A DNA stretch of 64,000 bases from positions 22,133 through 86,132 of the forward strand of contig CAZQGS010000026.1 of assembly GCA_964593235.1 (NCBI GenBank), in the 5' to 3' direction. The notes beneath the pieces were generated by a model that worked only from the letters and a program-made list of their open reading frames with translations, did not search any database and was not told the DNA's origin. The stretch comes from an uncultured Gemmatimonadota bacterium. Its GTDB lineage: Bacteria; JAAXHH01. Shown piece by piece: positions 318 through 47,096 of the stretch; position 1 is the stretch's first letter, and each line of letters begins with the position of its first letter. A program made the position numbers and the translations under genes.

Positions 318-3013
<2,696 letters not shown>

Positions 3014-3085
3014 TCAATTGCCAACTGGGAGTCTAAAATTTATGGAAACGCCAAATTTATGGCATAACACGTTCAAGGGGAAAGT

Positions 3086-8825: not shown

Positions 8826-8831
8826 GAATTC

Positions 8832-10894: not shown

Positions 10895-10956
10895 GGAAAA
10901 TAAAAATTAATGGTTGTATAGCATAAAGATTGGGATGATAACAGGGGGCAAAAGCC

Positions 10957-12150: not shown

Positions 12151-12202
12151 CTAGGATTAGACTGTTCTGTAGGTAAAGATCAATTTAGGGTAGGGAATAT
12201 AA

Positions 12203-16196: not shown

Positions 16197-16248
16197 ACAG
16201 ATTAGCTCAGAATTACGGTGTTGTTTACTAGAGGAGTAACATCTGGCT

Positions 16249-16848: not shown

Positions 16849-16858
16849 TGGAGATCTT

Positions 16859-18728: not shown

Positions 18729-18750
18729 GCCTATAAAGAGAACAATCTGA

Positions 18751-19431: not shown

Positions 19432-19434
19432 ACC

Positions 19435-20157
19435 ATGGCAGAATTAACAACTCGTTTGCGCATAACACCGTTCGGAGTTATTTGTCTCGTTGGATTAATT
19501 ATATCGTTGTACCTTTCATTAATTTGGGCACCCAGGGAGCGGGTTATGGGGGACGTGCAGCGGATAATGTATTTCCATGTTGCTACAGCATGGATTGCAG
19601 AGTTAGCTTTTCTTTTAGTGGGTATTTCGAGTATTATTTATCTGTGGCTTAGAGAACGTAAATGGGATATTGTGGCTTATAGTGCTGCCGAAGTGGGCTT
19701 TGTATTTTGCTGTTTCGTAATGATAACTGGACCAATCTGGGGGAAACCAGTCTGGGGGACTTGGTGGACATGGGATCCACGTCTCACGTTTTCAATGATA
19801 TTGTGGCTTATATATGTAGGTTACTTAATGCTTCGGGTTTATGGTGACGATATCCCTCAGGTGAAAACCTTTCTTGCAGTACTTGGCATATTAGGTACTT
19901 TAGACATCCCGTTTATTCATTTCGCTACAATGTGGTGGCGGGGGTTACATCCCGATTCTCTAGTTATGAGCGAGGAAGGATTGGGGGCAGGGATGGAAGT
20001 TGATATGCGCATTGCTCTGGCTGTGTCGGCTATTGTTTTTACCTTGTTTTTTTTCTATCTTATGGGACGTCGAATGGCCTTGGAACGTTTACGAGATGAA
20101 ACCGAAGATCTGCGAGATCGTTTAGAATATATGAATAATGATAATATCAGAAATTAA
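19435..20157 (+). CDS. ccmC: Haem lyase/exporter component CcmC
   Basis: 240 aa. Tryptophan-rich WWD motif GKPVWGTWWTWDPRLT and conserved His in flanking loops. Confidence 0.85.
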   Translation: MAELTTRLRITPFGVICLVGLIISLYLSLIWAPRERVMGDVQRIMYFHVATAWIAELAFLLVGISSIIYLWLRERKWDIVAYSAAEVGFVFCCFVMITGPIWGKPVWGTWWTWDPRLTFSMILWLIYVGYLMLRVYGDDIPQVKTFLAVLGILGTLDIPFIHFATMWWRGLHPDSLVMSEEGLGAGMEVDMRIALAVSAIVFTLFFFYLMGRRMALERLRDETEDLRDRLEYMNNDNIRN

Positions 20158-31131: not shown

Positions 31132-33588
31132 GTGTGTAAGCGCGTTTTTTTTAGCTTTGTTTTGTTACTGGTCTATTTTGATTTATTAAATGCTCAATCA
31201 TCAAGCTCAGTAGCGAATAAACAATATCTGCCACCGAGAGTACTGATTGTAGACTATGCCATGGCCTACCCTAAGGAAAACGCGGGCTTGGTACGAATAT
31301 TCAAGGAAGCAGGCTTTAATGTCAACCTCCGTTCATACTATCCTGCAATGGTAGGAAAAGACGTTTCTACTTATGATATTATAATTTTGCTGGGAGGCGG
31401 TGATCCTGGAATGAGCACTCAGGAAATTGATCTAGCTATCAATTATGTCTCCCGAGGGAAAACATTAATACTTGGAACACCATCCAATGGATTTTACGGA
31501 AAAAAGAGAAAAACTAACCCAGGTGTTCATGATCGGTATCAATTCAATAACTTACTTAATCGGCTGAAAATTAATCTTTTTGTGGTTAATGCTGATAATA
31601 AACTTAGCAAAAACCTGAACTCGGTAGCGAAATTTAACCCAGTTATAAACGATTCAGTTGGGAATAACCTGGGTGATGAAATATCTTTTCGTCCTGGCAC
31701 TCGTGTGTTAGTTGGATCGGGGGCTAAGCCCTTACTTGTAGAGTCAAAACTAATAAAAGCCAACAAAGCTAATCAACAGGAATCAGAAAAGGAGCCTAAA
31801 TACCGATTCATTCGCCGCAACCTCCGCATTCTTCCCTCAAATGCAATACCAGGAGAGAATATAAATTTGTTACTACGGGGCCGCCAAAAATTTCGAACAA
31901 ATTTGTACTTCAGGAGGCGAGAACGTTCAAAACCTGTAGATTGGGAGACATCAAAATTTAAGGGAGTAGTGGAAAGTATATCAGAAGCATTAGATACGCT
32001 CAAAATACGGATGCCTGGTAACCGTTGGGGTGCTGAATATGCGAGATTAAATGTTCCAACAAAAGTGATTGCAGATGCCTTTGTTAGTCGGGAAATTAGA
32101 GAAGTTATCCAGTCTGAAGATAGTCTTAAATCAATATGGGTTGATGAGGAAACCTATGGGCGTATGGCGATAGCTGCGGTGGGTAGAACAGGCCGCTTGA
32201 ACAAGGGTTTTGTATTGGTGGTGGACCGGGATATTCTAGCCGGAATTGATCTCCCCTTGCCACCACTAGGGATGCCTGAGGCAGAAACTGAAATTTTGGA
32301 GCAATTTTTGGGTATCCTTGCCCAGTATACTCGATCACTCATCGAAAATCCTACAAACTGGTCCTCCGATCACGACTATCCAGTGGCCCAGTTGCCAGGT
32401 AATCCGAAGTCCAATATAGCAATCAACAACATTTCTGTACTGGCTGATTTACCCGGTCGGGCGCAGAAAGTGCCATTTGTATCTCCTAGTATATCAGCTT
32501 CCGGTATGAAAATTGATAACATTCCAATACAATCTTATAATTCCCCATTGCGAGGAGTATGGGATTTTGTCACACGTCAGCATGATCATATTACTACCCT
32601 AGCTAATATTTTGCCTGAACTCAAAATGGATTTTTTGTGGACTGTAGCCCCAGTAGAAAGCTACCTCGGAGAGATTCCGATAGCAGGAGGGGTACGGTTT
32701 AAGTCATGGGCTGTACCAATTTCAGATTTACTAAGTAGTACTTCAACCGATTGGTACGTGGGGCTTACAGCGTTTAGTGCCATCGAGGGAGATTATGAAC
32801 AAGCTTTAGATGTTCGCGGTAAACCAACAGGATTACCTTCAAGGTTTGACATGGGTTATTTGAATAGATCTCTCTTTGAACCGTCTCGTATTATAGCTCG
32901 ACATAGTCTTAGTTATAATAATTTGAAGGGCATTATTCATGATTGGGAACCTCACATTAATAGGTTATTCAGATCTTATGGAATGATGGATATTTTTGAT
33001 GATTTACATTTCCAATACTTCACCCGCCATCTTGTTCAAACAGGATTTTATCAGGGAGAGGAACTTAAATCGTTTATACAACTTGGTCGGGACAAACGTT
33101 TCGAGTGGCTTCTGAAATCCGGATACTTAGCGACTTATTTCTCGATCCTGGAAACTAATGCAGAACGGCTAGGTATTCTTTATCGAAAAACGTTAGACGA
33201 AATAAATCCAGGCTTAATCCATGGAGCTTTTGTCCAATCCTTAAAACTAGATTGGTACTCTCTTGGTTTTTGGAAAGGAGTCGGTACACCAGATCGACCT
33301 TTTCTGATCTTCTCTTACCAACGTCCTCCAATATGGTTACGGCAGTTTCTTCGGGAGCGGAATATTTCAGCCCGAATACTTCCTGTTGGCTTGCTGGGCC
33401 TCCTAAACGAAAATGATATTGCCAATCTTCACATAGCAACCTCTGATTTAGGAGGATATGCACTAGAGCGTGGCATATGGCTCGTAGAAGATCCACCCAA
33501 AGATGTTGAGTTAAACGCTTTGCCGAAAAGTGTTCCCCGAGATGCTTTGCTAGATGTTATCCAGCGATCAAATGAGTATAGTGAATAA
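31132..33588 (+). CDS. Large secreted protein of unknown function
   Basis: 818 aa. Signal peptide MCKRVFFSFVLLLVYFDLLNAQ. No motif recognisable by eye. Confidence 0.35.
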   Translation: MCKRVFFSFVLLLVYFDLLNAQSSSSVANKQYLPPRVLIVDYAMAYPKENAGLVRIFKEAGFNVNLRSYYPAMVGKDVSTYDIIILLGGGDPGMSTQEIDLAINYVSRGKTLILGTPSNGFYGKKRKTNPGVHDRYQFNNLLNRLKINLFVVNADNKLSKNLNSVAKFNPVINDSVGNNLGDEISFRPGTRVLVGSGAKPLLVESKLIKANKANQQESEKEPKYRFIRRNLRILPSNAIPGENINLLLRGRQKFRTNLYFRRRERSKPVDWETSKFKGVVESISEALDTLKIRMPGNRWGAEYARLNVPTKVIADAFVSREIREVIQSEDSLKSIWVDEETYGRMAIAAVGRTGRLNKGFVLVVDRDILAGIDLPLPPLGMPEAETEILEQFLGILAQYTRSLIENPTNWSSDHDYPVAQLPGNPKSNIAINNISVLADLPGRAQKVPFVSPSISASGMKIDNIPIQSYNSPLRGVWDFVTRQHDHITTLANILPELKMDFLWTVAPVESYLGEIPIAGGVRFKSWAVPISDLLSSTSTDWYVGLTAFSAIEGDYEQALDVRGKPTGLPSRFDMGYLNRSLFEPSRIIARHSLSYNNLKGIIHDWEPHINRLFRSYGMMDIFDDLHFQYFTRHLVQTGFYQGEELKSFIQLGRDKRFEWLLKSGYLATYFSILETNAERLGILYRKTLDEINPGLIHGAFVQSLKLDWYSLGFWKGVGTPDRPFLIFSYQRPPIWLRQFLRERNISARILPVGLLGLLNENDIANLHIATSDLGGYALERGIWLVEDPPKDVELNALPKSVPRDALLDVIQRSNEYSE

Positions 33589-33775
33589 TAATTGCCCCTG
33601 TCCTATTATATCTTAAAAAAATCCCTCAAATTCGACTAGAAAGTAATAAAAACCTGCACTTTTGTACGGCACAGGAATTTGGGTTCATATATTTTTAGTT
33701 TTTATAACCAAGATAAAATTAATCAGCTCCACGAATGAGCAGTGGAATAATTCTACATTATTGCCTGAAAAATAC

Positions 33776-33807
33776 TTGACAAAACAGACTAATGTCTTCT
33801 TTATATT
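33776..33807 (+). promoter_or_regulatory. lexA promoter (TTGACA 33776-33781; TTTATA 33800-33805) with embedded AGAC-TAAT-GTCT inverted repeat (33786-33797)
   Basis: Consensus -35, 18-nt spacer and an AT-rich -10, about 55 nt upstream of lexA. A perfect 4+4 inverted repeat sits in the spacer. A degenerate Cheo-like GAAT-N4-GTTC lies at 33675-33686. Confidence 0.35.
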
Positions 33808-33861
33808 TTAGTTATCTGTTTAGGTTTCTAATTTTTTTAAAAAAACCTCAAGGATTTTGAT

Positions 33862-34476
33862 ATGGCCTATACTTCTCCTGGAGAAACCAGGAATAAAATC
33901 TACAGTTTTGTAAGGGAGCAGATCCTAAATGGAACACCACCCACAACTCGCGAAGTTCAATATGCTTTTGGATTTCGAGCAGTTCAGTCAGCTCGACAGC
34001 ATTTAGAGAAGTTGGTACTTGAGGGTAAGCTCGCTAAAGTGGATGGAATGTCACGAGCCTACCGATTACCGGAGTTTGGAAAAGTTAGTCCTCCCCAGTT
34101 AATCCCTATGTTAGGCCGTGTCCAAGCTGGAGAATTAACAGAGGCTATGGAGGATCCTTCAGAATATATAATGGTACAAACTCGTTTTGATGACAGTGAG
34201 CTTTTTGCACTGACGGTAGAGGGAGAAAGTATGCTAAATGCAGGTATTATGCCCGGAGATATGGTTGTTGTGCGCCGACAACCTACTGCTAGTTCGGGAG
34301 ACATCGTAGTAGCATTGATTGGTGAGGAAGCAACAGTCAAGCGGTACCGAGAACGAAATAGTAGTATTGAATTACATCCGGAGAATGACACTTTTTATCC
34401 AATAATTCCCGAGGAACTAGGGACATCATTTTCAATTTTGGGTAAGGTTATTGAGGTCCGACGGTGTGTAGAATAA
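33862..34476 (+). CDS. lexA: LexA repressor (S24 peptidase)
   Basis: 204 aa. wHTH N-domain, Ala-Gly cleavage site (VQAGE), catalytic Ser (GESM) and Lys (VKRY) in the C-domain. Confidence 0.9.
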   Translation: MAYTSPGETRNKIYSFVREQILNGTPPTTREVQYAFGFRAVQSARQHLEKLVLEGKLAKVDGMSRAYRLPEFGKVSPPQLIPMLGRVQAGELTEAMEDPSEYIMVQTRFDDSELFALTVEGESMLNAGIMPGDMVVVRRQPTASSGDIVVALIGEEATVKRYRERNSSIELHPENDTFYPIIPEELGTSFSILGKVIEVRRCVE

Positions 34477-34495
34477 AGTTAATATAGAAAGAAAA

Positions 34496-34515
34496 ATCGA
34501 AAAGTGTTCTTCGAT
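34496..34515 (+). promoter_or_regulatory. Inverted repeat ATCGAA-N8-TTCGAT upstream of imuA (candidate operator)
   Basis: Perfect 6-bp arms with 8-nt spacer (AAGTGTTC), 29 nt upstream of the imuA ATG, inside the short lexA-imuA intergenic region. Confidence 0.3.
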
Positions 34516-34543
34516 AGGTCAAAGAAATATCTAAGGAGTTTTC

Positions 34544-35179
34544 ATGTCAGGTATAAGTGTTCTGGATCTGCAGAATCACGATCTCTATTTTAAGCGAATT
34601 CCACGTGTAGATAAGAAAAAGAAACCGATATGGTCTCGGAAAGAACTGGCTGGACGTCTCTGCGAGTTGTCCTCTATCTATGGTACGGCACAGTTAACAG
34701 CTGCATTCCAATTGGTTTTAGACGCACAATTTGAAGGCGAACCAACCGCTTGGATCACAACGACGTTAGATACATTTTTTGCTCCTGATGCAGCAGAGGG
34801 TGGTGTGGACCTAGATGCTCTTGTAGTCATCCATGTCCCCAATACGGCAGCCGCAACGCGTGCGGCTGATCGGATTCTACAATCCGGGGGATTTGGATTG
34901 GTAGTAATGGATCTTCATGGTGATTCCAGAATTCCAATACCGATGCAAATGCGCTTAGTTCAGCAAGTTAGGGAATACAATACAGCCTTTTTATGCCTAA
35001 CTATCAAGTCCAAAGATATGCCTTCATTGGGACCGATGGTTTCTCTTAGAGGTCAGACATCTTGTCGTCGTCTGACGGTTGGACGTTTTCAATATGAAAT
35101 CGAAGTACTTAAGGACAGAAGTTATGGGCCAGGCTGGCATTATGCCGAAATCTGCCGTGGTCCGGACGGCTTGCATTAA
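34544..35179 (+). CDS. imuA: ImuA-like (SulA/RecA-fold) mutagenesis cassette protein
   Basis: 211 aa, degenerate RecA-like core (FGLVVMDLHG...), placed between lexA and a Y-family polymerase paralogue plus dnaE2. Confidence 0.65.
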   Translation: MSGISVLDLQNHDLYFKRIPRVDKKKKPIWSRKELAGRLCELSSIYGTAQLTAAFQLVLDAQFEGEPTAWITTTLDTFFAPDAAEGGVDLDALVVIHVPNTAAATRAADRILQSGGFGLVVMDLHGDSRIPIPMQMRLVQQVREYNTAFLCLTIKSKDMPSLGPMVSLRGQTSCRRLTVGRFQYEIEVLKDRSYGPGWHYAEICRGPDGLH

Positions 35180-36608
35180 TATCTGGGACTTGCCATTACA
35201 GATCCTATTAAGGAACCACCCAGAGTGGTGTAAAAAGCCAGTAGCTGTGGTAGAAGAAGAACAACCTTTGAGTCCTATTTTGTGGCTCAATGCAGCTGCT
35301 ATCCGGGCTGGTATTAAACCAGGGATGCGATATTCCTCGGCTCTATCTCTAGATCAGGGCCTGTGTGCAGGAACGATTTCAGATCAAGAAATACATTTTA
35401 CAATACAGAATATCCATATGGTACTCGATCATTTTAGCCCCTGTGTAGAACCAAGCAGGGAGGATCCTGGTATTTTCTGGTTAGATGCAAGTGGATTAAA
35501 TTTGCTCTACAGTTCCCTCAAAAATTGGGCGAGTCAGATTCAATCTAGTATTTTGCGTTTGGAATTAAAAGCTAGTATAGTAGTTGGCTTCAGCCGTTTC
35601 GGTACTTATGCAATTGCCAAGGGAAAAAAGGCAATGGTTGTAATGCCCACTATGGAAGTAGAAAATTACGAGAGTAACAGAGTCCATTTACAGCACTTTC
35701 AACTTCATTCTAAACTAAAAAAACAGTTAATCAAATTAGCAATACATACTGTAGATGACTTCCTCGCGCTTCCGCAAGAAAGTATAGTACAACATCTTGG
35801 TAAGCAGGCCAGAGATTTCTACCACTTCGCAATGAATGAACAATCTCTACCTCTTCAACCCCAAAAACTCCCTGAATCTTTTCAAGCCCAGATAGAATTA
35901 AGTAGAAATGAATCTAACTCTCAGAGTTTACTACTTCGAACATCTCAATTGTTAATACCCTTGCTAAATAAGATAGGGAATAAAGGGCAAGTAGTTGTGG
36001 CTCTTCGGTTAGAGTTTCGGTGTGAAAATGGAACTAGGTGTTATCACCGTATCCAGGCTGCAGAGCCCACCTTAAATGCCAAAATTTTGTTGGAACTTGT
36101 TGGTTTGAAACTGGAAACAATAACTTTTATTTTCCCTGTGGTAGAACTTTATCTCGAGGCAGAAGGTGTATGTTTTACAGATAAAAAAAGGAGTTTGTTT
36201 CGAGAGAACCCAATCCGTGATAAGAGCTCAGCTATGCGTGCATTAGCACGAGTGCGTGTTGAGTTTGGTACTAATTCAGTACTCATAGCCCAACTTAAAA
36301 AAGGACACCTACCAGAAGCTCGCTTTGAATGGTATCGCTTTGATAGACTCACAATTGCCAAGCCACGATCGGTATCCATACGTTCTCTGATACGTCGTAC
36401 TTATACACACCCTAGAGCGGTAGGTGATTTGCTATTAAAATATCCGCCATCCCCAATATCTTCCCACGAATATTTAATAAACGGGGGTTGGTGGTGTCGA
36501 GAAATCCGGAGAAATTACCGTTTTGTAGATACTAGAAAGGGTGAAACCCTTTGGGTTTATTATGACCACCGGAAACATAGTTGGTTCGTGCAGGGTTGTG
36601 TTGAATAA
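35142..36608 (+). CDS. imuB: ImuB, catalytically inactive Y-family polymerase paralogue (start uncertain: 35079/35124/35142)
   Basis: About 490-510 aa with Y-family (UmuC/DinB-like) palm/fingers arrangement but no catalytic DxD acidic motif recognisable by eye. Lies between imuA and dnaE2. The ORF-track start at 35079 overlaps imuA by 100 nt, so an internal Met is more plausible. Confidence 0.7.
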   Translation: MPKSAVVRTACINIWDLPLQILLRNHPEWCKKPVAVVEEEQPLSPILWLNAAAIRAGIKPGMRYSSALSLDQGLCAGTISDQEIHFTIQNIHMVLDHFSPCVEPSREDPGIFWLDASGLNLLYSSLKNWASQIQSSILRLELKASIVVGFSRFGTYAIAKGKKAMVVMPTMEVENYESNRVHLQHFQLHSKLKKQLIKLAIHTVDDFLALPQESIVQHLGKQARDFYHFAMNEQSLPLQPQKLPESFQAQIELSRNESNSQSLLLRTSQLLIPLLNKIGNKGQVVVALRLEFRCENGTRCYHRIQAAEPTLNAKILLELVGLKLETITFIFPVVELYLEAEGVCFTDKKRSLFRENPIRDKSSAMRALARVRVEFGTNSVLIAQLKKGHLPEARFEWYRFDRLTIAKPRSVSIRSLIRRTYTHPRAVGDLLLKYPPSPISSHEYLINGGWWCREIRRNYRFVDTRKGETLWVYYDHRKHSWFVQGCVE

Positions 36609-36641
36609 TTTCGAATAGAGTGTTTAACATTTATAATCATT

Positions 36642-39600
36642 ATGAATGATAATGTAACTGGCGTACGATCTTTATCGAACTCAAACAGTATGGTATCTCC
36701 AGCTAAAACTTATACCCCCCTTTGGTGCAAAAGTAATTATTCATTTCTGGAAGGAGCAAGCCATCCCGAAGAGCTGGTCGATTCCTGTAAGAATTTGGGT
36801 ATTACTTCTTTGTCGTTAACCGATCGTAATGGAGTTTACGGTATTATTCGTGCTCATGTCCGTGCTCGTGATTTAGATATCCATTTGATAGTAGGATCTC
36901 AAGTTAGTCTTCAGAATGGCTCAGATATTTTACTCCTAGCACAGAACCAGGAAGGTTATTCTCAACTCTGTCAGCTTCTGACTAACGGCCAACTACGTTC
37001 ACATAAGGGAGAATGCCGTGTGAGTTGGGAGGAAGTTTGTCATCATAATCCGGGGTTAATTGCGCTGTGGATTGGTGAATCCTATCCGATTAAATCAACT
37101 TTATCCGAAAATTATAATTCGACATTCATCTTGGAGCAACTTAAGTCAAACTTTGAAGATCGTTTGTACGTTTTGCTAGCTCGTCATCACCACGCAGAAG
37201 AACCCCTAAGAGAAATCCAGCTTCGGGAACTGGCGAACAAGTTAAGGGTGCCTACCGTAGCAGCTGTAGAAGTTCTCTATCATGTACCTGAACGTCGGCG
37301 TTTGCAAGATGTACTAACATGTATTAGGGAGGGGGTTACACTACCTGAGGCAGGACAATTAATCCGCCCGAACGATCAATATTTTATGAAAAGTATGGAT
37401 GATATGAAACGCCTATTTGCTGATGATTTAGTGTCACTCGAGCGAACTCGTGAGATATCTGAACGTTGTAATTTTCATCTCGGAGAAATACACTACCGTT
37501 ACCCACTGGAACGCCTTCCGAAAGGAAAAACCTCTATTCAGTACTTAGAAGAGCGAACCTTCGAGGGTGCAGCTCAACGTTTGGGTGACAAATTTGAAAC
37601 TCAGATTCCTCAGTTGAGAAAGGAACTTACATTAATAAGAGAATTAGAGTACGAAGGGTATTTCTTGACTATGTTCGAGATAGTAGAGTACTGTCGTCGT
37701 CAGAATATTATATGTCAGGGGCGTGGATCGGCAGCAAATTCTGCCGTATGTTTCTCCCTAGGTATCACAAGTGTTAATCCGACACAGGTGAATCTTCTCT
37801 TCGAACGTTTCCTATCGAGAGAAAGAGCTGAACCTCCAGATATTGACTTAGATATTGAGCATGATCGCCGAGAAGAAGTAATTCAATATGTGTACAGGAA
37901 GTATGGACGCTCGCATGCAGCTATGGTAGCTAATGTCGTTCGCTACCGATATCGTTCAGCTATTCGGGAGGTGGGTAAAGTGTTAGGAATTCCGGCTACT
38001 TCCTTAGATCAATTAGCCAAGCAGGTATCTCATGGGAACTGGAATGGAACCCTTTTTCGGAATACTGGTCTTGACCCAGAGAACCCAATCATACGTCACT
38101 TAAATATCCTAGTGAGAGAGATTCAACATTTCCCGCGCTATCTTTCTATTCATCCCGGAGGATTCCTAATAGGCCACCTTCCTATATACGAATTGGTACC
38201 GATAGAAAATGCTACTAAGAATAGGCGAACAGTAATCCAATGGGATAAAGAGGATGTGGAAAATGCAGGACTTTTTAAGGTTGATTTATTAGGCCTAGGC
38301 GCTCTAAACTTGTTGCATCGCGGATTTGATCTCTTGAGTCGGTACCGTCAGAAAGAACTTTCACTAGCTACGATCCCCAGGGATGATATTGCTACTTTCG
38401 ATCTTATTTGTCGAAGTGAAACAGTGGGTGTGTTTCAAATAGAGAGCCGAGCCCAGATGGCTATGTTAAGACGAATGAAACCCCGAAGTTACTATGACCT
38501 TGTAGTACAGATTAGTATTGTCCGACCTGGTCCAATAACGGGAGGTATGGTTCATCCGTACCTACGGAGGCGCAATAGGGAAGAATATGTGACATATCCT
38601 CATGAATCACTTATACCTGTCCTTAAAAAAACCCTGGGCGTTCCACTTTTTCAGGAGCAAGTGATGCAGTTAGCTATGGTTGCGGCAGACTACACGCCTG
38701 GAGAAGCTGACCAACTTAGACGGGATATGTCCGCTTGGCGGTTTTCAGGACGGATCGACCGGCATCGGGGACGTTTAATTTCGCGCATGGTGAAAAAAGG
38801 TATTGAAAAAAAATTTGCAAAGCAAGTATTTGAGCAGATTCGTGGGTTTGGTGAGTACGGGTTTCCAGAGAGTCATGCGGCTAGTTTCGCCCATATTGCT
38901 TATGCCACAGCATATATGAGGTGTCACTACCCAGCTGAGTTTATCTGTGCCCTACTTAATGCCCAACCTATGGGATTTTACACGCCAGCAACTATTGTCA
39001 ATGATGCCCGGATACATGGAATAGAGATACGATCAGTTGATATACGTCATAGTCGATGGGAATGTACGTTGGAAAAGATTGAGGATACGTCTGGAAAAGC
39101 TAATATCAAAAATAGTAATGTTGGTACTAAACACAAAATATTTGCGGTCCGAGTAGGTTTACGTTATATCCGTGGATTTGGGAAAAAAGATTGGGATAAA
39201 TTAGAATTAGCTATGTCTAAAGCACCTTTTCGTGATATTCAAGACATTGTTCAGCGAAGTGGTATTAACAAGGGGAAATTGGAATCTCTCGCAGTAGCTG
39301 GAGCTTTCAATTGCTTTGGCAAGGAACGTCGTTATTCTATCTGGGATATTTTGGGAACCAAAGAGTACTATCAATCTCCTTTGCTTTTAAAAATGGATAA
39401 CCCTCTTCCTAAATTTAAGTCTTTAGGTGACTTAGAAACTATCTGCTGGGATCACCAAACTTCCGGGCATAGTGTTCAAGGGCATCTCCTCAAGCCACGA
39501 CGCTCTGAACTAACAGCTCAAGGTATACCCACAGCACGAGAACTCAACAGGATGTCGGATGGTGATACAGTTAAGTATGTAGGGTTGGTTATTAGCCGTC

Positions 39601-39845
39601 AAAAACCGAAAACAGCTCAAGGCGTTACGTTTATGACATTAGAGGACGAAACAGGTTTTGTAAATCTAGTGATTTGGAAACAGGTTTTCGAAAATAATAT
39701 CACACTGGCAAAAAAACTGTATTATATGGGAGTTACTGGTAAACTTCAGGTAGGAGAAGGCCTTGTTCATTTAATTGTAAAGTCAATTTGGAACCCAGCA
39801 CTGGATGATCAACTTCTCTATTTACAAAGTAGAGATTTTCGTTAA
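36642..39845 (+). CDS. dnaE2: Error-prone DNA polymerase III alpha paralogue DnaE2 (ImuC)
   Basis: 1067 aa. PHP domain N-terminus, Pol IIIalpha palm/fingers (GRGSAANSAVCFSLGIT, DIDLDIEHDRR, GFLIGHLPIYELVPIE), OB domain at the C-terminus. No tau/beta-binding tail, and a typical DnaE2 length. Confidence 0.9.
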   Translation: MNDNVTGVRSLSNSNSMVSPAKTYTPLWCKSNYSFLEGASHPEELVDSCKNLGITSLSLTDRNGVYGIIRAHVRARDLDIHLIVGSQVSLQNGSDILLLAQNQEGYSQLCQLLTNGQLRSHKGECRVSWEEVCHHNPGLIALWIGESYPIKSTLSENYNSTFILEQLKSNFEDRLYVLLARHHHAEEPLREIQLRELANKLRVPTVAAVEVLYHVPERRRLQDVLTCIREGVTLPEAGQLIRPNDQYFMKSMDDMKRLFADDLVSLERTREISERCNFHLGEIHYRYPLERLPKGKTSIQYLEERTFEGAAQRLGDKFETQIPQLRKELTLIRELEYEGYFLTMFEIVEYCRRQNIICQGRGSAANSAVCFSLGITSVNPTQVNLLFERFLSRERAEPPDIDLDIEHDRREEVIQYVYRKYGRSHAAMVANVVRYRYRSAIREVGKVLGIPATSLDQLAKQVSHGNWNGTLFRNTGLDPENPIIRHLNILVREIQHFPRYLSIHPGGFLIGHLPIYELVPIENATKNRRTVIQWDKEDVENAGLFKVDLLGLGALNLLHRGFDLLSRYRQKELSLATIPRDDIATFDLICRSETVGVFQIESRAQMAMLRRMKPRSYYDLVVQISIVRPGPITGGMVHPYLRRRNREEYVTYPHESLIPVLKKTLGVPLFQEQVMQLAMVAADYTPGEADQLRRDMSAWRFSGRIDRHRGRLISRMVKKGIEKKFAKQVFEQIRGFGEYGFPESHAASFAHIAYATAYMRCHYPAEFICALLNAQPMGFYTPATIVNDARIHGIEIRSVDIRHSRWECTLEKIEDTSGKANIKNSNVGTKHKIFAVRVGLRYIRGFGKKDWDKLELAMSKAPFRDIQDIVQRSGINKGKLESLAVAGAFNCFGKERRYSIWDILGTKEYYQSPLLLKMDNPLPKFKSLGDLETICWDHQTSGHSVQGHLLKPRRSELTAQGIPTARELNRMSDGDTVKYVGLVISRQKPKTAQGVTFMTLEDETGFVNLVIWKQVFENNITLAKKLYYMGVTGKLQVGEGLVHLIVKSIWNPALDDQLLYLQSRDFR

Positions 39846-40076
39846 ACAGAATTTTCTCTTAAAAACCACCATTTTTAAATACTTCAATAGTTTATCAAAG
39901 CAAACGGATATCTTGCTTACTAGTCCTATTAGATATATACTACCCTGAAGTCCTTTATAACAAGTTTAATAACCTCAACAGAGATCCTCATTTTTTGTAA
40001 TCTTTCAGATTTATAATTCTAAGACAGCCTGTTCGAAAACGACATTACCCTCAGGCTCACACGGAGACTTGTACCT

Positions 40077-41486
40077 ATGGGTTCGGAAAAAAACATCATT
40101 AGTTTTGTCAATAGTCAGGCGGCTAGATTATCTGCAATTGCCAAGGATATCTGGGATCATCCACAGATTGCATTTCAGGAGACCTACGCTTCTGAGTTGA
40201 TCGCGGGAGAGCTAGAAGCAGATGGTTTTTCCATAGAATGGGGCGCAGGTGGAATGGCTACAGCATTTACTGCTACTTGGGGCTCTGGAAGTCCTATCAT
40301 AGGTTTTCTAGGGGAATATGATGCCTTGCCGGGTTTGTCGCAGCAGGTTATTGCGGAACAAAAATCTATCGAATCAGATGCACCGGGCCATGGGTGCGGG
40401 CATAATCTGTATGGTACAGCCTGCATGGGTTCGGTAATAGCCCTCAAGCGTGAAATGGAAAAAGAAAATATAGTTGGAACAATAAGATTCTACGGTTGTC
40501 CTGCGGAAGAACAAGTAATTGGTAAAGTTTTGATGGCACGAGATGGCGTTTTCAACGATTTAGACGCTGCTATAACGTGGCATCCTGGTTCCACAAATCT
40601 AGTGTGGAATGGTTCATCCCTTGCCCTAAATTCTTTCAAGGTGAACTTTTATGGAGTAGCTTCTCACGCTGCTGCTGCACCCCATCTAGGACGCAGTGCT
40701 CTTGATGGGGTAATGTTAATGGATATCGGTATGAACTATCTAAGAGAACATGTGGCATCAGAATGTCGTATTCATAGTGTCGTGACGAGTGGTGGTGATG
40801 CTCCAAACGTGGTTCCAGCCTATGCCCAGATCTGGTACTATATTCGAGCTCCAGAACGAGAACAAGTAAACTTGATGTACGAGAGAGTAGTCGATATTGC
40901 TAAGGGGGCGGCTCTAATGAGTGGTACTTCTCATGAAATTGAATTCATAGCTGGTTGTTATGAAGTTTTACCCAATAATGCACTGTCTGACCTAATGTTA
41001 GCAAAAATGGACCGAGTTAATGATCTTGTCTTTACTGCTGAAGAGCGACGTTTTGCACGCCAAATACAAGCTACTTTCCCTGATGAAGCAATTCAGGGGG
41101 CCTTTGATCGGCTCCAAATGGCAGTACAGAAAGATACTATAGTCGAAAGTATTGAGAATCCCCTATGGACCCAAGTTTTACCTCACGATGAAGACGGGCC
41201 ATCGGTCGAAGGGTCTACCGATGTGGGTGATGTAAGTTGGATAACACCCACTGGACAAATCACCTCGTGTTGTTGGCCTCTGGGAACACCACCGCATAGT
41301 TGGCAAATGGTTGCTAGTTCTGGATCTAGTATTGGTAGTAAAGGAATGCTCTTTGCTACTAAGACTATGGCTTTGGCTGGTCTCGATCTCCTAAGAGATC
41401 CGGATATTCTTAATCAAGCTAGAAAAGAGTTTGACGAAGCAAGAAATGGATTGACCTACAAGAGTGCTTTGCCAGAGAACAATTGA
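40077..41486 (+). CDS. M20D-family amidohydrolase (AbgB/aminobenzoyl-glutamate hydrolase-like)
   Basis: 469 aa. M20 metal-ligand contexts (GHGCGHNLYG, ...EEQVIGK...). AbgB-like length. Confidence 0.65.
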   Translation: MGSEKNIISFVNSQAARLSAIAKDIWDHPQIAFQETYASELIAGELEADGFSIEWGAGGMATAFTATWGSGSPIIGFLGEYDALPGLSQQVIAEQKSIESDAPGHGCGHNLYGTACMGSVIALKREMEKENIVGTIRFYGCPAEEQVIGKVLMARDGVFNDLDAAITWHPGSTNLVWNGSSLALNSFKVNFYGVASHAAAAPHLGRSALDGVMLMDIGMNYLREHVASECRIHSVVTSGGDAPNVVPAYAQIWYYIRAPEREQVNLMYERVVDIAKGAALMSGTSHEIEFIAGCYEVLPNNALSDLMLAKMDRVNDLVFTAEERRFARQIQATFPDEAIQGAFDRLQMAVQKDTIVESIENPLWTQVLPHDEDGPSVEGSTDVGDVSWITPTGQITSCCWPLGTPPHSWQMVASSGSSIGSKGMLFATKTMALAGLDLLRDPDILNQARKEFDEARNGLTYKSALPENN

Positions 41487-41962: not shown

Positions 41963-44167
41963 ATGCCGTTGTCCGACTCTCTGCCGGACCCAATACACAA
42001 GAAAATTGATCCGATACTCGATCCCAATGAAGAAATTCGATTGGCGTTGGAATCTGACTTAGATTCGGAAGGAAAATTTGTCCCTTCCTGGTTAGTTATT
42101 ACCGACCGTCAGGTTATGTCTCTCGGCCTTAACGGCAAAGGTGATGATATAGCCGTGCCGCTAGAGGAATTGAATAAGGTGTCAGTGGAGCCCCTTGTAG
42201 GTGGTTCATGCCTCGAAGTATCAACGAAAACAGATACAATACCATTAATACGATACTCCCATAGTAGGAATGATCGTTTTAATGAGGCTCATCGGGGCCT
42301 AGAACAGCAGATTAAAGATAAACCTTTCCTCATTAAGACGGATTTGCCACGCATTATTTGTGATAATTGTGGCCGTCGTTTACCGGTTAAAGATGGGTTA
42401 TGTCCAGCTTGCGTTAGTAAGTGGAGTATGCTAAAACGAATATGTTCTTATTTGAGAAGTTACAAAAAACATGCGATAGCTATGGTAGCTATATTTTCAG
42501 TATTAAGCCTTGCTGAGTTAGCCCCTCCCAAAGTAACACAGCTAATTATAGATGATGCTTTTGCCAGTAAAGATAAAGGACTATTGTTTTTTTATATCAT
42601 AATAATGGCTAGCTTGTTGGCTTTGCGTTGGATCAGTGAAATCTCTAATGGCTGGTTGTCGGCATGGTTAGGAGCTCGTGTGGTAGCAGATATACGGGAT
42701 CAGGTCTACCGTCACATAGAGTATCTGTCATTAGGGTTCCATGATAAACAGAAAACGGGGGCACTCCTTTCACGGGTAACTAACGACACCCGTAACGTAC
42801 GAGGTTTTCTCGTTGATGGGATGCCTTTTATCGTGCTTAGATGTTTCACGACGTTGGGGATTATTGGTATGTTATTTTATACTAACTGGATTTTAACTCT
42901 TTACATCCTGATTCCTGTGCCACTGATGATACTTTGGGGTAAATTTCTGTATCGCCGTCTTCGGATATTTTACACACGTCTTTATAGGCAATGGGAAGGA
43001 TTTTTTGCGCACATTCAGGAATCCTTGTCGGGAATCCGTATCGTAAAGGCTTTCGCACAAGAAACTAAGGAAGTTAACCGATTTAAAAGTAATGCTAGGG
43101 CTATGTTCGAACTTAGGTATTGGACAGAAAAGCAATGGATTAACTACTTTTCTACTATGGGACTTATAAATTTCCTGGGATTCGTTGTCGTCTGGTTTAT
43201 AGGAGGCCAGCAGGTTTTGGGTCAGGAGTTAACACTCGGTGAACTTATGCTATTTTACTTCTATCTACAAATGTTTTATGGGCCTCTACGCTGGCTTGGT
43301 AGAGTAAATAGTTGGATGACTCGGGCTATGAGCGCAGCTGAACGAATATTTGAAATAGTCGATACAGAACCGGAAGCCTATTCTAATCAAAATGCCAAAA
43401 GGATGGAAAACACACAGGGTGAAATAATTTTTGATAACGTAAGTTTTGGATATGAATCAGCACTGCCGGTTCTCAAGGATATCAGTTTACACATTCGCCC
43501 TGGTGAAATGGTAGGATTGGTTGGAAAGTCAGGTGCTGGAAAAAGTACAATGGTTAATTTAATATCTCGATTTTATGATGTAAATTATGGATCGATAAAA
43601 CTAGATGGAGTAGACCTACGAGATATTCGATTAGAAGATTTGCGGGGACATGTTGGTGTCGTCATGCAGGAACCAATCCTTTTTAGCGGGACAATTCGTG
43701 ACAACATTGCTTATGGAAGGCCAGAAGCAAGTTTTGAAGAAATAATGACGGCTGCTCGAGCAGCAAACGCTCATACTTTTATTTTGTCCAAACCATCAGG
43801 GTATGAAACATTTATTGGGGAGAAGGGGGCAGATCTTTCGGGTGGTGAAAGGCAGCGAATCACCATTGCCAGGGCAATTCTTCACGACCCTAAAATTTTG
43901 ATCTTAGATGAAGCGACCTCATCTGTAGACGCACAAACGGAAAAACAATTACAAGAAGCCATAGGGCGTTTAACCCAAGGGCGTACGACCATTGCTATAG
44001 CTCATCGGTTATCTACTCTTCGGGACGCAGATAAATTAGTGGTATTAGATCAAGGTTCTATCGTGGAAATTGGTACTCATGAAGAATTAATAAGAAAGCG
44101 AGGCCATTTCCACCAACTACTCCGGCTTCAACAGGCTGCCTCCCAAATTATGAAGAGAGTTAAATGA
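41963..44167 (+). CDS. ABC exporter half-transporter (TMD-NBD) with N-terminal bPH-like domain + CxxC..CxxC zinc ribbon, subunit 1
   Basis: 734 aa. Residues about 1-125 form a soluble domain (FVPSWLVITDRQVMSL... reminiscent of bacterial PH/YdbT-like domains). CDNCGRRLPVKDGLCPAC zinc ribbon. Six-TM type I exporter domain. NBD with Walker A GKSGAGKST, LSGGERQR, Walker B ILILDEATS. Confidence 0.8.
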   Translation: MPLSDSLPDPIHKKIDPILDPNEEIRLALESDLDSEGKFVPSWLVITDRQVMSLGLNGKGDDIAVPLEELNKVSVEPLVGGSCLEVSTKTDTIPLIRYSHSRNDRFNEAHRGLEQQIKDKPFLIKTDLPRIICDNCGRRLPVKDGLCPACVSKWSMLKRICSYLRSYKKHAIAMVAIFSVLSLAELAPPKVTQLIIDDAFASKDKGLLFFYIIIMASLLALRWISEISNGWLSAWLGARVVADIRDQVYRHIEYLSLGFHDKQKTGALLSRVTNDTRNVRGFLVDGMPFIVLRCFTTLGIIGMLFYTNWILTLYILIPVPLMILWGKFLYRRLRIFYTRLYRQWEGFFAHIQESLSGIRIVKAFAQETKEVNRFKSNARAMFELRYWTEKQWINYFSTMGLINFLGFVVVWFIGGQQVLGQELTLGELMLFYFYLQMFYGPLRWLGRVNSWMTRAMSAAERIFEIVDTEPEAYSNQNAKRMENTQGEIIFDNVSFGYESALPVLKDISLHIRPGEMVGLVGKSGAGKSTMVNLISRFYDVNYGSIKLDGVDLRDIRLEDLRGHVGVVMQEPILFSGTIRDNIAYGRPEASFEEIMTAARAANAHTFILSKPSGYETFIGEKGADLSGGERQRITIARAILHDPKILILDEATSSVDAQTEKQLQEAIGRLTQGRTTIAIAHRLSTLRDADKLVVLDQGSIVEIGTHEELIRKRGHFHQLLRLQQAASQIMKRVK

Positions 44168-44271
44168 TGTTTTTTAGCGCGTGGTACGGTCTAACAAGGT
44201 GAAGTTTTTCCACCAATTCGGATAGCATTGACAGGGAACTAATTTTACTGAAGAGATATGGAAATAGAAGA

Positions 44272-46551
44272 ATGCTAGGAAATAAAATCTACAAAGAAAA
44301 GATGCCGGTAATATTAAAAGAAAGTATCGAATCGGTTCTGCGTAATGGAGAAACCGTTATTATTGCGGCTGAAACTGACCTATCCAAAGATCTTAAATTT
44401 GAAAAACGTTGGTTAATAGTAACAAGTCAGCGTCTTATAGAGTTCGATCCAGGAAAGAAGAATATTTCTGAGGTTATTGAACTAGTGAATGTCCGTAAAA
44501 TTTTTATAGAAGATTTAGTTGGTTCGGCCAGGCTCAATGCAGAGATTGGGAATGAAATTGTTGAAATTGTACGTTTCACTCCCTCACTTCGTTCTAAGTT
44601 TGGGAACATTGTTCAAGGTATAGATCAGTTAATCAAGGATAAGCCTGTAAATTTAGATGTTGATATTGAAAAAAAACGTTGTGATAAGTGTAAAAGGCTT
44701 CTGCCCGACTCTTCGGGGTTTTGCCCATCCTGTCCAGATCGATTAGGGATGCTTCGACGAATTACGGGTTACATGGCTCCTTTTAAGGCTCGGGTTATAG
44801 TAATGGTTTCAATCTCGCTTCTGTATTCTCTTGCTGAACTTGGGCCACCTTACATAATGAAGAATATAATAGATGGTGTTCTAATCAATGCAGGTAGTGA
44901 TGTGTCGGAAGATGGGACCACCCTACTTTATCTTTTAGTCGCTGGGTTTGCGGTCATTCGACTAATTTCTTACGTATTAGAAATCATAGGCACCCGGCTC
45001 TCTTTATGGCTTGGAGGGCGGGTTACAGTATCTATTCGGGAGGAGCTATACGAAAACCTGTCGCGACTAAACATGAAATTTTATAACAAACGTAAAGTTG
45101 GATCACTGATTTCTCGTGTTTCTAATGACACAGAGAGCATGATGTCTTTTCTAGTAGATGGTGTGCCCTATATTCTGACGAATGCCCTCCTTCTAGTTGG
45201 AATATTGATTCTTCTTTTCGTCACGAGCTGGAAATTAACATTGCTCGTCCTTATTCCCATACCCTTGTTAATAATTGGTGGATGGTTCTTTTGGTATCGG
45301 CTGATCCGGGCCTATAGGAACAAATACTATAGGTGGAGCAAATTAATTGGCTTAACAAGCGAAATGCTCCACGCAGTACGCTTAATAAAAACGTTTGTGC
45401 AGGAAAAAAGAGAAATGGGACGTTTTAACGAAAACAATGAAGGTGTATTTAAAGGGGATTTTAATAGTGAAAAAGAAGCAGCTCTTTTCTTTGGAACGAT
45501 TAAAGTCATAACTTCTTCTGGCTTGGTTCTCGTCTGGTTCTACGGTGGCGAGGCCATTATCGATGAAACCTTCACACTGGGTTCTCTTATGATGTTTATA
45601 AGCTACTTATGGATGCTTTATGAACCTTTACAGTGGTTTGGTGAACTTAACACGTGGTCGAGTCGAGCTATGAGTGGCGCGGAAAAAGTTTTTGAAGTAA
45701 TCGATACTCCTGCTGAGACAGAAGATCAGAAAAACCCTGTTAAGATTCCTAGGATAAAAGGTCAGGTAGAATTTGAGAATGCTTATTTTTCTTATGAGAT
45801 TGGCACCCCAGTACTCCATGGAATAAACTTGTTAGTAAAGCCTGGAGAAATGATAGGTTTGGTAGGAAGATCAGGATCCGGAAAGTCCACATTAGTAAAT
45901 TTATTATGTCGATTTTACGATATAGATGAAGGTAAATTATCTATTGATGGTATTCCAATCAAAGATGTTAGATTAGAAGACCTGCGGCGCCAAATTGGAG
46001 TAGTATTGCAAGATTCTTTCTTTTTTAGTGGATCTATCGAAGAAAACATTCGGTATAGTAATCCCCAAGCTACTCTTGATCAAGTTATGACTGCAGCTCG
46101 AACAGCAAACGCTCATGACTTTATTTGTAGTAAACCAGACGGATATGATACTCGGATAGGTGATAATGGTAAGGGTTTGTCCGGAGGGGAAAAACAACGC
46201 TTATCAATAGCCCGAGCCATTCTACACAATCCCAGCATCCTAATTTTGGATGAGGCAACTTCTTCGGTTGATACCCATACAGAAAAACTGATTCAGGAAG
46301 CGATCGCTAACCTTGTCAAGGGTCGAACTACTTTCGCAATTGCCCATCGACTTTCTACACTACGAAGTGCTAATCGCTTGGTAGTTTTAGATGAAGGGAA
46401 CATTGTGGAAACTGGGAGCCACAACGAATTGATGGATTTGAAAGGCCATTTTTATCGTATGGTAGAAACACAGAGGAAAAGCACAGAAATAGTTGCTGTT
46501 AGTGGAAAGAAAAATTTAAGTAATAATCAAGTCATCGAGGTTAATAGATGA
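44272..46551 (+). CDS. ABC exporter half-transporter with N-terminal bPH-like domain + zinc ribbon, subunit 2 (paralogue; likely heterodimer partner)
   Basis: 759 aa, colinear with the previous protein including the N-terminal domain (KFEKRWLIVTSQRLIEF, IDQLIKDKP) and zinc ribbon (CDKCKRLLPDSSGFCPSC). Walker A GRSGSGKST, LSGGEKQR, ILILDEATS. Confidence 0.8.
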   Translation: MLGNKIYKEKMPVILKESIESVLRNGETVIIAAETDLSKDLKFEKRWLIVTSQRLIEFDPGKKNISEVIELVNVRKIFIEDLVGSARLNAEIGNEIVEIVRFTPSLRSKFGNIVQGIDQLIKDKPVNLDVDIEKKRCDKCKRLLPDSSGFCPSCPDRLGMLRRITGYMAPFKARVIVMVSISLLYSLAELGPPYIMKNIIDGVLINAGSDVSEDGTTLLYLLVAGFAVIRLISYVLEIIGTRLSLWLGGRVTVSIREELYENLSRLNMKFYNKRKVGSLISRVSNDTESMMSFLVDGVPYILTNALLLVGILILLFVTSWKLTLLVLIPIPLLIIGGWFFWYRLIRAYRNKYYRWSKLIGLTSEMLHAVRLIKTFVQEKREMGRFNENNEGVFKGDFNSEKEAALFFGTIKVITSSGLVLVWFYGGEAIIDETFTLGSLMMFISYLWMLYEPLQWFGELNTWSSRAMSGAEKVFEVIDTPAETEDQKNPVKIPRIKGQVEFENAYFSYEIGTPVLHGINLLVKPGEMIGLVGRSGSGKSTLVNLLCRFYDIDEGKLSIDGIPIKDVRLEDLRRQIGVVLQDSFFFSGSIEENIRYSNPQATLDQVMTAARTANAHDFICSKPDGYDTRIGDNGKGLSGGEKQRLSIARAILHNPSILILDEATSSVDTHTEKLIQEAIANLVKGRTTFAIAHRLSTLRSANRLVVLDEGNIVETGSHNELMDLKGHFYRMVETQRKSTEIVAVSGKKNLSNNQVIEVNR

Positions 46552-47096
46552 AAAAAGCAACAAAAACAGAAAAAGTGGAAATCTCTGAATTAGATATAGG
46601 GATAGAAAACGCCCCGACTGAACCTTATCTCGCCCATGAAATTAGGGTTTTCAGGGCTCCAAGTAATTCTGTCCGAATGACTGTACGCAATGAACGGTCC
46701 TATATAAGAGTCCGACCTGTACGAGCATCCCCAATAGCTCATCCCGAAACCTATGTTTCGCTACTTGATATTAAGAACGAAGAAGTTGCTTTCATTAAAA
46801 ATCTTGGTGATTTAGATGAAACATCACGAAAGGTTATAGAGGAAGAGTTAACTCATCGTTATTTAAAAGCCAAGATAGAGTGTATCTATTCTATACAGAT
46901 GGAATATGGTATTACTTACTGGGATGTAATGACGGACCGGGGGAAACGAGAATTCGTTATTAGGGGGTATGACAGCATACACTGGGTTACTAAAACCCGC
47001 CTTCTAATTACAGATGTAGATGGAAATCGTTTTGAAATTATCGACTACACCCAATTAGATCCTCTCAGTATCAACTTAATCGAAACTCATATCTGA
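46548..47096 (+). CDS. Soluble 182-aa protein translationally coupled to the ABC pair (possibly DUF1854-like; unverified)
   Basis: Its ATG overlaps the stop of the upstream ABC gene (ATGA). No TM segments. Basic/aromatic-rich, no catalytic motif recognisable by eye. Confidence 0.45.
   Translation: MKKATKTEKVEISELDIGIENAPTEPYLAHEIRVFRAPSNSVRMTVRNERSYIRVRPVRASPIAHPETYVSLLDIKNEEVAFIKNLGDLDETSRKVIEEELTHRYLKAKIECIYSIQMEYGITYWDVMTDRGKREFVIRGYDSIHWVTKTRLLITDVDGNRFEIIDYTQLDPLSINLIETHI

Follow-up and report, generated by a model that had tools for sequence, protein, structure and literature searches.

Here, we describe a segment of a 64,000-nucleotide (nt) stretch of DNA, hereafter called the window, which was taken from contig CAZQGS010000026.1 in the assembly GCA_964593235.1 of an uncultured Gemmatimonadota bacterium. 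The segment, located at positions 33862-39845 on the plus strand, contains the genes lexA, imuA, imuB, and dnaE2 (imuC), and the analysis confirmed that it is an intact, ordinary case of the known bacterial damage-inducible mutasome operon. An earlier examination of the letters, here called the sequence-only reading, had proposed such a cassette in a single co-directional array, and this was borne out. The segment is filled by four consecutive open reading frames (ORFs) with the same direction, and their coordinates matched those in a program-made ORF list exactly (Table 1). The gap between the lexA stop codon and the imuA ATG is 67 nt, in agreement with the claim that the two genes are separated by less than 70 nt, while imuA and imuB overlap by 56 nt and imuB and dnaE2 are separated by 33 nt. 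No convincing internal promoter or terminator was seen within the operon, and a scan for consensus promoters and terminators in the region 33400-40200 gave no more sites than in shuffled sequences. We consider it very probable that the locus is a chromosomal, vertically inherited lexA-imuA-imuB-dnaE2 operon that encodes a LexA-repressed mutasome, as proposed.

The cassette was compared with 44 related loci, which were identified as matches to the ImuA-like protein in GTDB representative genomes and which make up 45 loci together with the window. All 44 come from metagenome-assembled genomes (MAGs) labelled Latescibacterota, Gemmatimonadota, or Acidobacteriota. The order lexA-imuA-imuB-dnaE2 is present, as far as the contigs extend, in 29 of the 44 loci, and the remaining loci have kept imuA-imuB-dnaE2 with no adjoining lexA. 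The four-gene arrangement is furthermore identical in 10 conspecific metagenome contigs. Since the same order recurs in loci that were fetched by the ImuA-like protein alone, and is identical in the conspecific contigs, the arrangement is not due to chance. LexA is the most conserved of the cassette proteins, with 80-83% identity between the window and its closest relatives, as compared to 68-74% for ImuA, 68-75% for DnaE2, and only 56-60% for ImuB.

The sequence-only reading had also claimed that lexA is autoregulated. In support of this, the comparison revealed a conserved palindrome between the -35 and -10 elements of the promoter of the cassette or of lexA in 45/45 loci, which makes it a putative operator. 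The loci share an upstream module, placed before lexA or before imuA where lexA is absent, that consists of cTTGACAwAACAGACAwwTGTCTGTT followed by an A/T-rich -10-like stretch, which in the relatives reads TTTTAT, TATTCT, or TATATT. The consensus of the palindrome in this family is AACAGACA-NN-TGTCTGTT, with the core AGAC-N4-GTCT. The module in the window consists of TTGACA, AA, and ACAGACTAATGTCTTC (33784-33799), with a perfect left arm and two mismatches in the right arm, which reads GTCTTC rather than GTCTGT, a variant that is shared with the relative L006. The sequence is identical in the 10 conspecific contigs. Of the 44 relatives, 35 have a single exact copy of ACAGAC-N4-GTCTGT each, as compared to a chance expectation that we estimate at about 0.001-0.002 per 16-kb locus, and a copy with at most two mismatches is found in all 45 loci, always at the promoter of the cassette or of lexA and in the same register after the -35 element. 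No second good copy (at most two mismatches) was found in the flanks of the 45 loci, and the window operator is the only such match in the 64 kb. In the relative L028, the cassette lacks lexA, and a LexA protein with 68% identity (P0176) is encoded by a solitary gene at another place on the 5.1-Mb chromosome that bears the cassette. The unlinked lexA gene bears the same promoter and palindrome, GCTTGACAAGACAGATATTTGTCTGTTATTTTT. Because the site is common to lexA and its presumed target operon, it has the signature of a LexA box, and the palindrome is likely the LexA box of this LexA lineage. The suggestion that one or several operators at this locus define the LexA box of the organism thus stands in part: the motif can be taken as the probable box of the LexA lineage, but an organism-wide role is not established, and there is one operator in the lexA promoter and none in the spacer between lexA and imuA.

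A candidate for a second operator in this spacer, the inverted repeat ATCGAA-N8-TTCGAT (34496-34515, with a 6-bp stem), was rejected since the palindrome is not conserved in the relatives. Its fold is not unusual (z = -1.39), and it is a poor match to the Cheo box. The lexA-imuA spacers of the relatives range from 15 to about 120 nt, and the long ones, found among L001-L005, L010-L017, L021, and L043, contain two to three direct copies of CATCG[AC]A[CT]A just 5' of the ribosome-binding site of imuA. The high-GC loci L010, L014, L016, L017, and L043 have a leader of about 100-150 nt between the operator and lexA with degenerate tandem units, for example CGCCGGCCCGTTTC. The corresponding leader in the window is short (about 55 nt), A/T-rich, and free of repeats.

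The domain searches that the sequence-only reading had called for support the identities of the cassette proteins. LexA, ImuB, and DnaE2 scored above the cutoffs of their respective models, and the RecA-like protein was recognized by structure alignment. LexA obtained 151.5 bits with TIGR00498 (cutoff 110.95) and contains a winged-helix DNA-binding domain (PF01726, 30 bits) and an S24 autopeptidase domain (PF00717, 100.7 bits). It aligns over its full length to the structures of LexA from Escherichia coli, and judging by this alignment it retains the Ala-Gly cleavage site and the Ser/Lys dyad.

The product of the imuA-type gene, with 211 amino acids (aa) as compared to about 350 in RecA, contains the RecA core domain but neither the N-terminal helix nor the C-terminal domain of RecA. 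It matched RecA structures with an E-value of 2e-3 as a single sequence, and the family profile matched single-chain RecA structures with an E-value of about 1e-11. The Walker A motif of RecA, GPESSGKT, corresponds to SSIYGTAQ in ImuA (nt 34670-34699), such that the P-loop Lys is replaced by a Gln, while a Walker-B-like VVMD is still present. The motif GK[ST] is found nowhere in an alignment of 16 members of the ImuA family. Homologs are annotated as “recombinase A”, and some of them exceed the Pfam cutoff for RecA, for which the window protein has only a sub-threshold match of 17.3 bits. Other annotations include PF27531, which is precomputed by Pfam for some homologs. A tblastn search with ImuA against a plasmid collection gave no match. 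Timinskas and Venclovas describe ImuA and ImuA' as RecA homologs in which both the C-terminal subdomain and the ATPase site are missing (PMC6511836), and the 211-aa protein fits this description. As it matched no curated ImuA model and no plasmid-borne ImuA, it is best called a divergent ImuA-family homolog of RecA.

ImuB matched the Pfam family IMS (PF00817) with 37.3 bits (cutoff 23.2), and its family profile matched the DinB structure 7yll (E-value 3e-8) as well as Pol eta. The near-invariant N19 is placed opposite the first catalytic Asp, which is D13 in Pol eta and D7 in Dpo4, and the VDMD motif is here INIR/W. In the DE pair, the catalytic Glu is matched by the invariant P115, whereas the acidic neighbor has been kept, as D114 in the window and as Glu in the relatives. 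With two of its three catalytic carboxylates lost, ImuB is predicted to be a catalytically inactive homolog of the Y-family. Such a loss is the hallmark of ImuB (PMC3901139, PMC11791113). In ImuB of L013, the heptapeptide RTACINI is duplicated in tandem (8596-8660), exactly where the degenerate active-site motif is located (…GRTACINIRTACINIRALPL…). The C-terminal extension of roughly 140 aa is of ImuB type and has been kept in the relatives.

The start codon of imuB was placed at ATG 35124, which is located 55 nt before the imuA stop codon and kept in 42 of 43 relatives, and independent gene callers gave a protein of 494 aa. The alternative TTG at 35079 was rejected, since most relatives have a stop codon in the extension, just after the equivalent of “KSKY”. 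The overlap of imuA and imuB is in different frames (35124-35179). In 42 of 43 relatives, it has the same length and the imuB ATG is kept, pointing to translational coupling or constraint on both frames.

DnaE2 obtained 1268.9 bits with the model for error-prone DNA polymerase, NF004225 (cutoff 939), and 668.6 bits with the DnaE1 model NF004226, which is below the cutoff of 1002. This error-prone C-family polymerase contains five Pfam domains (PHP, palm, fingers, HhH, and OB). The start of the gene is ambiguous and could be located at either 36642 or 36690. The residues PDIDLD (aa 399-405) and KVD within FKVDLLGL (aa 545-552) align to PDFDVD and KFD in the Pol III alpha subunit of E. coli, in which we take the catalytic residues to be D401, D403, and D555. 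By this alignment, all three catalytic aspartates are kept, and the active site of DnaE2 is predicted to be intact.

The function that we propose for the operon follows that published for the ImuA-ImuB-DnaE2 family (PMC3901139, PMC6511836, PMC10421592, PMC11791113), with the mycobacterial ImuA'-ImuB-DnaE2 mutasome and imuAB-dnaE2 of Caulobacter crescentus as the sources of the mechanistic model. While gene identities, residue states, synteny, and the conservation of the operator could be observed directly, the binding of LexA to DNA, co-transcription, contacts between the proteins, and mutagenic activity would be expected from established knowledge of this family. In the undamaged cell, a LexA dimer would be bound to the palindrome at 33783-33800. 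Because this site is located between the -35 hexamer TTGACA and the -10 region of the sole recognizable promoter, LexA should block RNA polymerase and thereby repress its own gene together with the three downstream genes. After DNA damage, filaments of RecA on single-stranded DNA would stimulate the self-cleavage of LexA between Ala89 and Gly90 by the Ser/Lys dyad, and the operon would be transcribed. Its products would then assemble into a mutasome, where ImuB serves as an inactive Y-family scaffold that is tethered to the beta clamp, binds the P-loop-less ImuA through the RecA-NT-like motif, and recruits DnaE2. As the only catalytically competent polymerase, DnaE2 would carry out the error-prone bypass of lesions.

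Several observations weigh against this interpretation. The organism is uncultured, and the operon is known from sequence. A search with ImuA in NCBIfam at an E-value of 1e-3 matched no family, including the models for ImuA itself. Moreover, the ImuA protein of Myxococcus xanthus was reported to be an ATPase (PMC11002988), and the P-loop-less ImuA studied here may work in a different manner. The clamp-motif-like KRSLF in ImuB of the window lacks the canonical Gln. A profile comparison with hhalign gave a sole match, of ImuB aa 370-388 to residues 11-29 of E. coli RecA, which is in the expected place but not significant (E-value 0.038, probability 1.35%). The -10 element lacks a clear definition, and the promoter of the cassette was not listed by the scan for consensus promoters. 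Finally, the window operator alone is not rarer than expected by chance, as 86 of 100 shuffles contained at least one such match with up to two mismatches. The argument for the operator is therefore purely comparative and draws on its orthologous position.

Two other explanations for the array itself concern the identity of imuB and the origin of the cassette. If the Y-family gene encoded an active DinB-type polymerase, the array would be a fortuitous neighborhood of repair genes. The best matches of the protein in NCBIfam and the Protein Data Bank (PDB) are indeed entries for DNA polymerase IV, and one acidic residue of the DE pair remains, but the DinB models gave only 19-36 bits against cutoffs of 256-399. 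The sequence-only reading had pointed to catalytic acidic residues in ImuB and a different gene context in relatives as the signs of a DinB-type polymerase. Instead, the first catalytic Asp is an Asn and the catalytic Glu an invariant Pro, the ImuB-type extension has been kept, and the gene order recurs in 29 of the 44 loci. The tests of residues and synteny thus refute this explanation, which we regard as hardly conceivable. Nor did we find much in favor of the cassette being a recently acquired mobile island. Sets of cassette-type LexA, ImuA, and ImuB occur in several phyla, and the flanking genes vary: among the 44 loci, the upstream ORF of 818 aa is never found beside the cassette, and the downstream M20 gene is found there once. 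However, the cassette (0.41-0.42) and the remainder of the window have the same GC content. Genes for integrases, transposases, or tRNAs were not found near the cassette, and scans of the window for Rfam elements and tRNAs gave no matches. The neighbors are genes for aconitase, GAPDH, and a pyridoxal phosphate-dependent enzyme on the upstream side, and for an M20 amidohydrolase and ABC exporters on the downstream side. The GyrB protein of the window (635-3013) is 86-89% identical to GyrB in MAGs labelled Gemmatimonadota, and the matches include genomes with close relatives of the cassette, namely L002, L011, and L014. Recent horizontal transfer was therefore rejected as very unlikely. The concordance with GyrB, together with the GC content shared with the flanks and the housekeeping neighbors, instead points to a native, vertically inherited, chromosomal cassette.

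It is less certain that the cassette LexA is a general regulator. Homologs with 59-63% identity to LexA are encoded in a Desulfobacterales MAG, a Spirochaetaceae MAG, and an untyped JGI metagenome contig. Each of the three is followed by imuA-imuB and has a related palindrome in the same promoter slot, CCGTACATTTGTACAG, CCGTACATTTGTCTGG, and CCATACAAATGTATGG. Across the LexA loci, the half-site varies as [GA][TG]AC. The recognition helix reads AVQSAR[Q/R/S/A]HL in eight LexA proteins of the AGAC type, as compared to [AS]VQ[ST]AREHL in three others. In a comparison of LexA aa 38-51 (33973-34014 in the window) with L056-L058, L063, L077, L081, and L098, the residue equivalent to E45 of E. coli is a Glu where the boxes are of the GTAC or ATAC type, and Gln, Arg, Ser, or Ala where they are of the AGAC type; in the window LexA it is Q46 (AVQSARQHL). 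This residue is possibly a determinant of specificity, but as the sample is small (n = 3 versus 8) it is only a lead.

A metagenome scan with the perfect 18-mer AACAGACAWWTGTCTGTT gave 104 loci, of which 29 adjoin homologs of lexA, imuA, or dnaE2; among loci with a GC content of at least 0.55, the corresponding number is 29 of 36. Two further sites are cut at the contig end and have flanks of cassette type. Several perfect sites are located directly 5' of a solitary dnaE2, which indicates that these may be split cassettes. As for the sequence-only suggestion that the operator be sought near recA, uvrA, and similar genes, the repair genes that adjoin perfect copies are cassette genes only, and a tblastn search with the E. 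coli RecA core found no recA beside these sites, although weaker sites at recA or uvrA would escape such a probe. Among twenty ORFs that flank non-cassette sites were genes for kinases, for a P-type ATPase, for an integrase, and the like, but none with a repair function, and ten matches to the 18-mer in viral contigs are unrelated to the cassette. Taken together, the window, the 45 loci (exact motif and up to two mismatches), the 104 metagenome loci, and the 10 viral contigs revealed no repair gene beyond those of the cassette, and no second operator site was present within the 64 kb of the window or within about 700 kb of flanks from the related loci. Since perfect 18-mers are a biased probe by which weaker sites are missed, we only lean toward a small, cassette-centered regulon.

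The loci L064 (site 779), L116 (site 3195), and L141 (site 2010) contain an identical promoter-operator module of 46 nt, GGTTCGATTAGTGTAACAGACATTTGTCTGTTATAAAGTTTTATTA, which precedes lexA in one contig and immediately precedes dnaE2 in another. In L066, L102, L109, and L128, the operator is located directly 5' of a solitary dnaE2. In these loci, the cassette appears to have been split and its control module duplicated. Some of the distant cassettes look decayed: dnaE2 was called at only 579 aa in the Desulfobacterales locus (L056, 9771-11509), and in the Spirochaetaceae locus (L057, 9821-13095) no dnaE2 follows imuB, with only an OB-fold fragment of 118 aa nearby. In L073, L085, L088, L110, L123, and L136, which all belong to one JGI project (Ga0126xxx), the perfect 18-mer is placed in a recurring non-coding context with a GC content of about 0.41, …GACTCACGTGTACC-site-TATTTATTTATTTG. 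This context has no relation to the cassette and could represent a repeat element from some other organism.

These results bear on an explanation by which the LexA of the cassette would be a second repressor dedicated to it, like LexA2 in Pseudomonas putida, and would control lexA, imuA-imuB, and dnaE2 only, while another LexA or another system runs the general SOS response. The distant homologs that precede imuA-imuB and have related operators, the perfect metagenome sites with cassette genes and not recA beside them, the flanking ORFs with no repair functions, and the lack of a second site in the window and related flanks are all in line with it, and two LexA regulons have been described in both P. 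putida and Xanthomonas axonopodis (PMC9578287, PMC5261740). However, no second lexA was seen in the loci and flanks examined, and LexA of the same type stands alone in L028, as a general regulator would. The strong conservation of LexA relative to ImuB (80-83% versus 56-60%) also fits a regulator that is constrained by many targets, and the bias of the perfect 18-mers, by which weaker recA or uvrA sites are missed, applies here as well. We therefore see a dedicated repressor as a serious alternative with a little less than even chances. If it holds, the operator described here would not be the LexA box of the organism. A further and rather unlikely elaboration is that the LexA belongs to a multi-phylum lineage which travels with the cassette and in this organism runs a self-contained, mutasome-only circuit apart from any general SOS response, with an operator that has diversified at two half-site positions, AGAC here as compared to GTAC, ATAC, or hybrid forms elsewhere, together with the E45-equivalent residue, and with AGAC-N4-GTCT as an undescribed motif. 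If so, AGAC-N4-GTCT would be a LexA motif with a readable switch in protein-DNA specificity.

The locus agrees with the known systems in the genes that it contains and their order, in the states of key residues, and in the logic of the promoter. Among the described systems, the closest is lexA2-imuA-imuB-dnaE2 (imuC) in P. putida (Abella et al. 2004, 2007, via PMC3901139, PMC5261740), which contains the same four genes in the same order, where lexA leads one damage-inducible unit under repression by its own product. The LexA2 regulon is also small and centered on the cassette (PMC5261740, PMC9578287). The proteins are nevertheless distant, and the ImuA described here has neither a tblastn match on plasmids nor an NCBIfam ImuA model. 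The operators also differ, with AGAC-N4-GTCT here and, reportedly, GTAC-N4-GTGC as the LexA2 box in P. putida. While P. putida has a second, housekeeping LexA, none was seen in this organism at the loci examined.

In the mycobacterial mutasome consisting of ImuA', ImuB, and DnaE2 (Warner et al. [quoted passage not shown] In ImuB of Mycobacterium smegmatis, the clamp motif 352-QLPLW-356 is followed by RecA-NT at 360-387 and ImuB-C at 422-525 (PMC11791113), and the three candidate elements in the window, downstream of the little finger, are placed at almost the same residue numbers. In the place of QLPLW, the candidate clamp motif reads KRSLF in the window and LNLLQ in the relatives. In contrast to the operon described here, the mycobacterial cassette is split, with imuA'-imuB apart from dnaE2, and does not include lexA. 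In Caulobacter crescentus, imuA-imuB-dnaE2 is a LexA-repressed operon of three genes that is required for induced mutagenesis (Galhardo et al. 2005, via PMC3901139), but lexA is located elsewhere in the genome and the box is a direct repeat, GTTC-N7-GTTC (PMC9578287). Deinococcus deserti has a mutagenesis operon led by lexA in one transcription unit, lexA-imuY-dnaE2 (PMC3901139, PMC8072749), which differs in that imuA is missing and ImuY is found instead of ImuB. The Gram-positive Cheo box, CGAAC-N4-GTTCG (PMC9578287, Table 1), resembles the operator in that two inverted half-sites are placed 4 bp apart. However, the half-site here is cAGAC and not cGAAC, the arms are longer (8 bp), and the site is strictly located between the -35 and -10 elements. 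In a limited literature search, AGAC-N4-GTCT was not among the LexA motifs in Table 1 of PMC9578287 or in PMC8565304, and nothing usable was found on a LexA box in Gemmatimonadetes or Acidobacteria or on the motif string. The points that distinguish the locus are the taxon, the divergent ImuA, the 56-nt overlap of imuA and imuB, and the AGAC-N4-GTCT box, and the conserved palindrome is the single trait by which the operon is less than ordinary.

Table 1. Genes and sequence features of the lexA-imuA-imuB-dnaE2 locus, with positions given in window coordinates.
Feature	Position	Strand	Remarks
-35 hexamer TTGACA	33776-33781	+	TTGACA or close variant two bases 5' of the palindrome in 45/45 loci, same register
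Putative LexA operator AACAGACTAATGTCTTCT	33783-33800	neutral	from comparison of loci
A/T-rich -10-like region	33799-33807	+	CTTTAT with 17-nt spacer or TATATT with 20-nt spacer, read from sequence
lexA	33862-34476	+	204 aa
LexA cleavage site, VQ-A89/G90-E (VQAGE)	34120-34134	+	aligned to E. coli A84-G85
LexA nucleophile Ser in GESM	34222-34233	+	aligned to E. coli S119
LexA general-base Lys in TVKRY	34333-34347	+	aligned to E. coli K156
Ribosome-binding site AAGGAG of imuA	34533-34538	+	read from sequence
imuA-type gene	34544-35179	+	211 aa; RecA-like
imuB	35124-36608	+	494 aa; mechanical ORF 35079-36608
Clamp-motif-like KRSLF in ImuB	36186-36200 (aa 355-359)	+	relatives: L[NSD]L[LFW] at the same column
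RecA-NT-like AMRALARVRVEFG in ImuB	36225-36284 (aa 368-387)	+	AMRALARVRVEFG..SVL
ImuB-C-like conserved C-terminal region	aa ~394-494	+	~100 residues; GHLPEAR..GGWW.RE.RR.YRF..W..QG.VE
dnaE2/imuC	36642-39845	+	1067 aa, or 1051 aa from ATG 36690

Outside the cassette, the ORF of 818 aa directly upstream (31132-33588, plus strand) has no match in Pfam or NCBIfam; it is present in the conspecific contigs. The gyrB and gyrA genes are adjacent (635-5569). A cluster at 6095-13249 contains two copies of a LysX/RimK-type gene and genes for a semialdehyde dehydrogenase, an amino-acid kinase, an aminotransferase, and an M20 protein, with hisS inserted, and the cytochrome c maturation genes ccmE, ccmA-like, ccmB, and ccmC are located at 15735-20157. 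Downstream of the cassette, two tandem ABC exporters are encoded together with a DUF1854 protein (41963-47096), and the best NCBIfam match of this set, below the cutoff, is a cyanophycin-associated ABC transporter. The GC content is 0.39-0.44 throughout the window but 0.58-0.65 in its closest relatives (those with 86-89% identity in GyrB), with L040 (0.46) and L031 (0.51) as intermediates. There is thus a large compositional shift within a single clade, of which the window is a low-GC member (0.41).

These results do not change our understanding of the cassette itself, which is already well known. They show that an uncultured marine lineage with low GC content, labelled Gemmatimonadota or Latescibacterota, carries an entire mutagenesis system that is intact and appears to be damage-inducible, and they provide a well-supported candidate for a LexA box in a group for which our limited search found none described. 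With this motif at hand, prediction of the regulon in these phyla would be a simple genome scan. Moreover, the AGAC, GTAC, and ATAC operators at a fixed promoter slot, together with a single varying residue in the recognition helix, would constitute a small natural series on the drift of LexA specificity.

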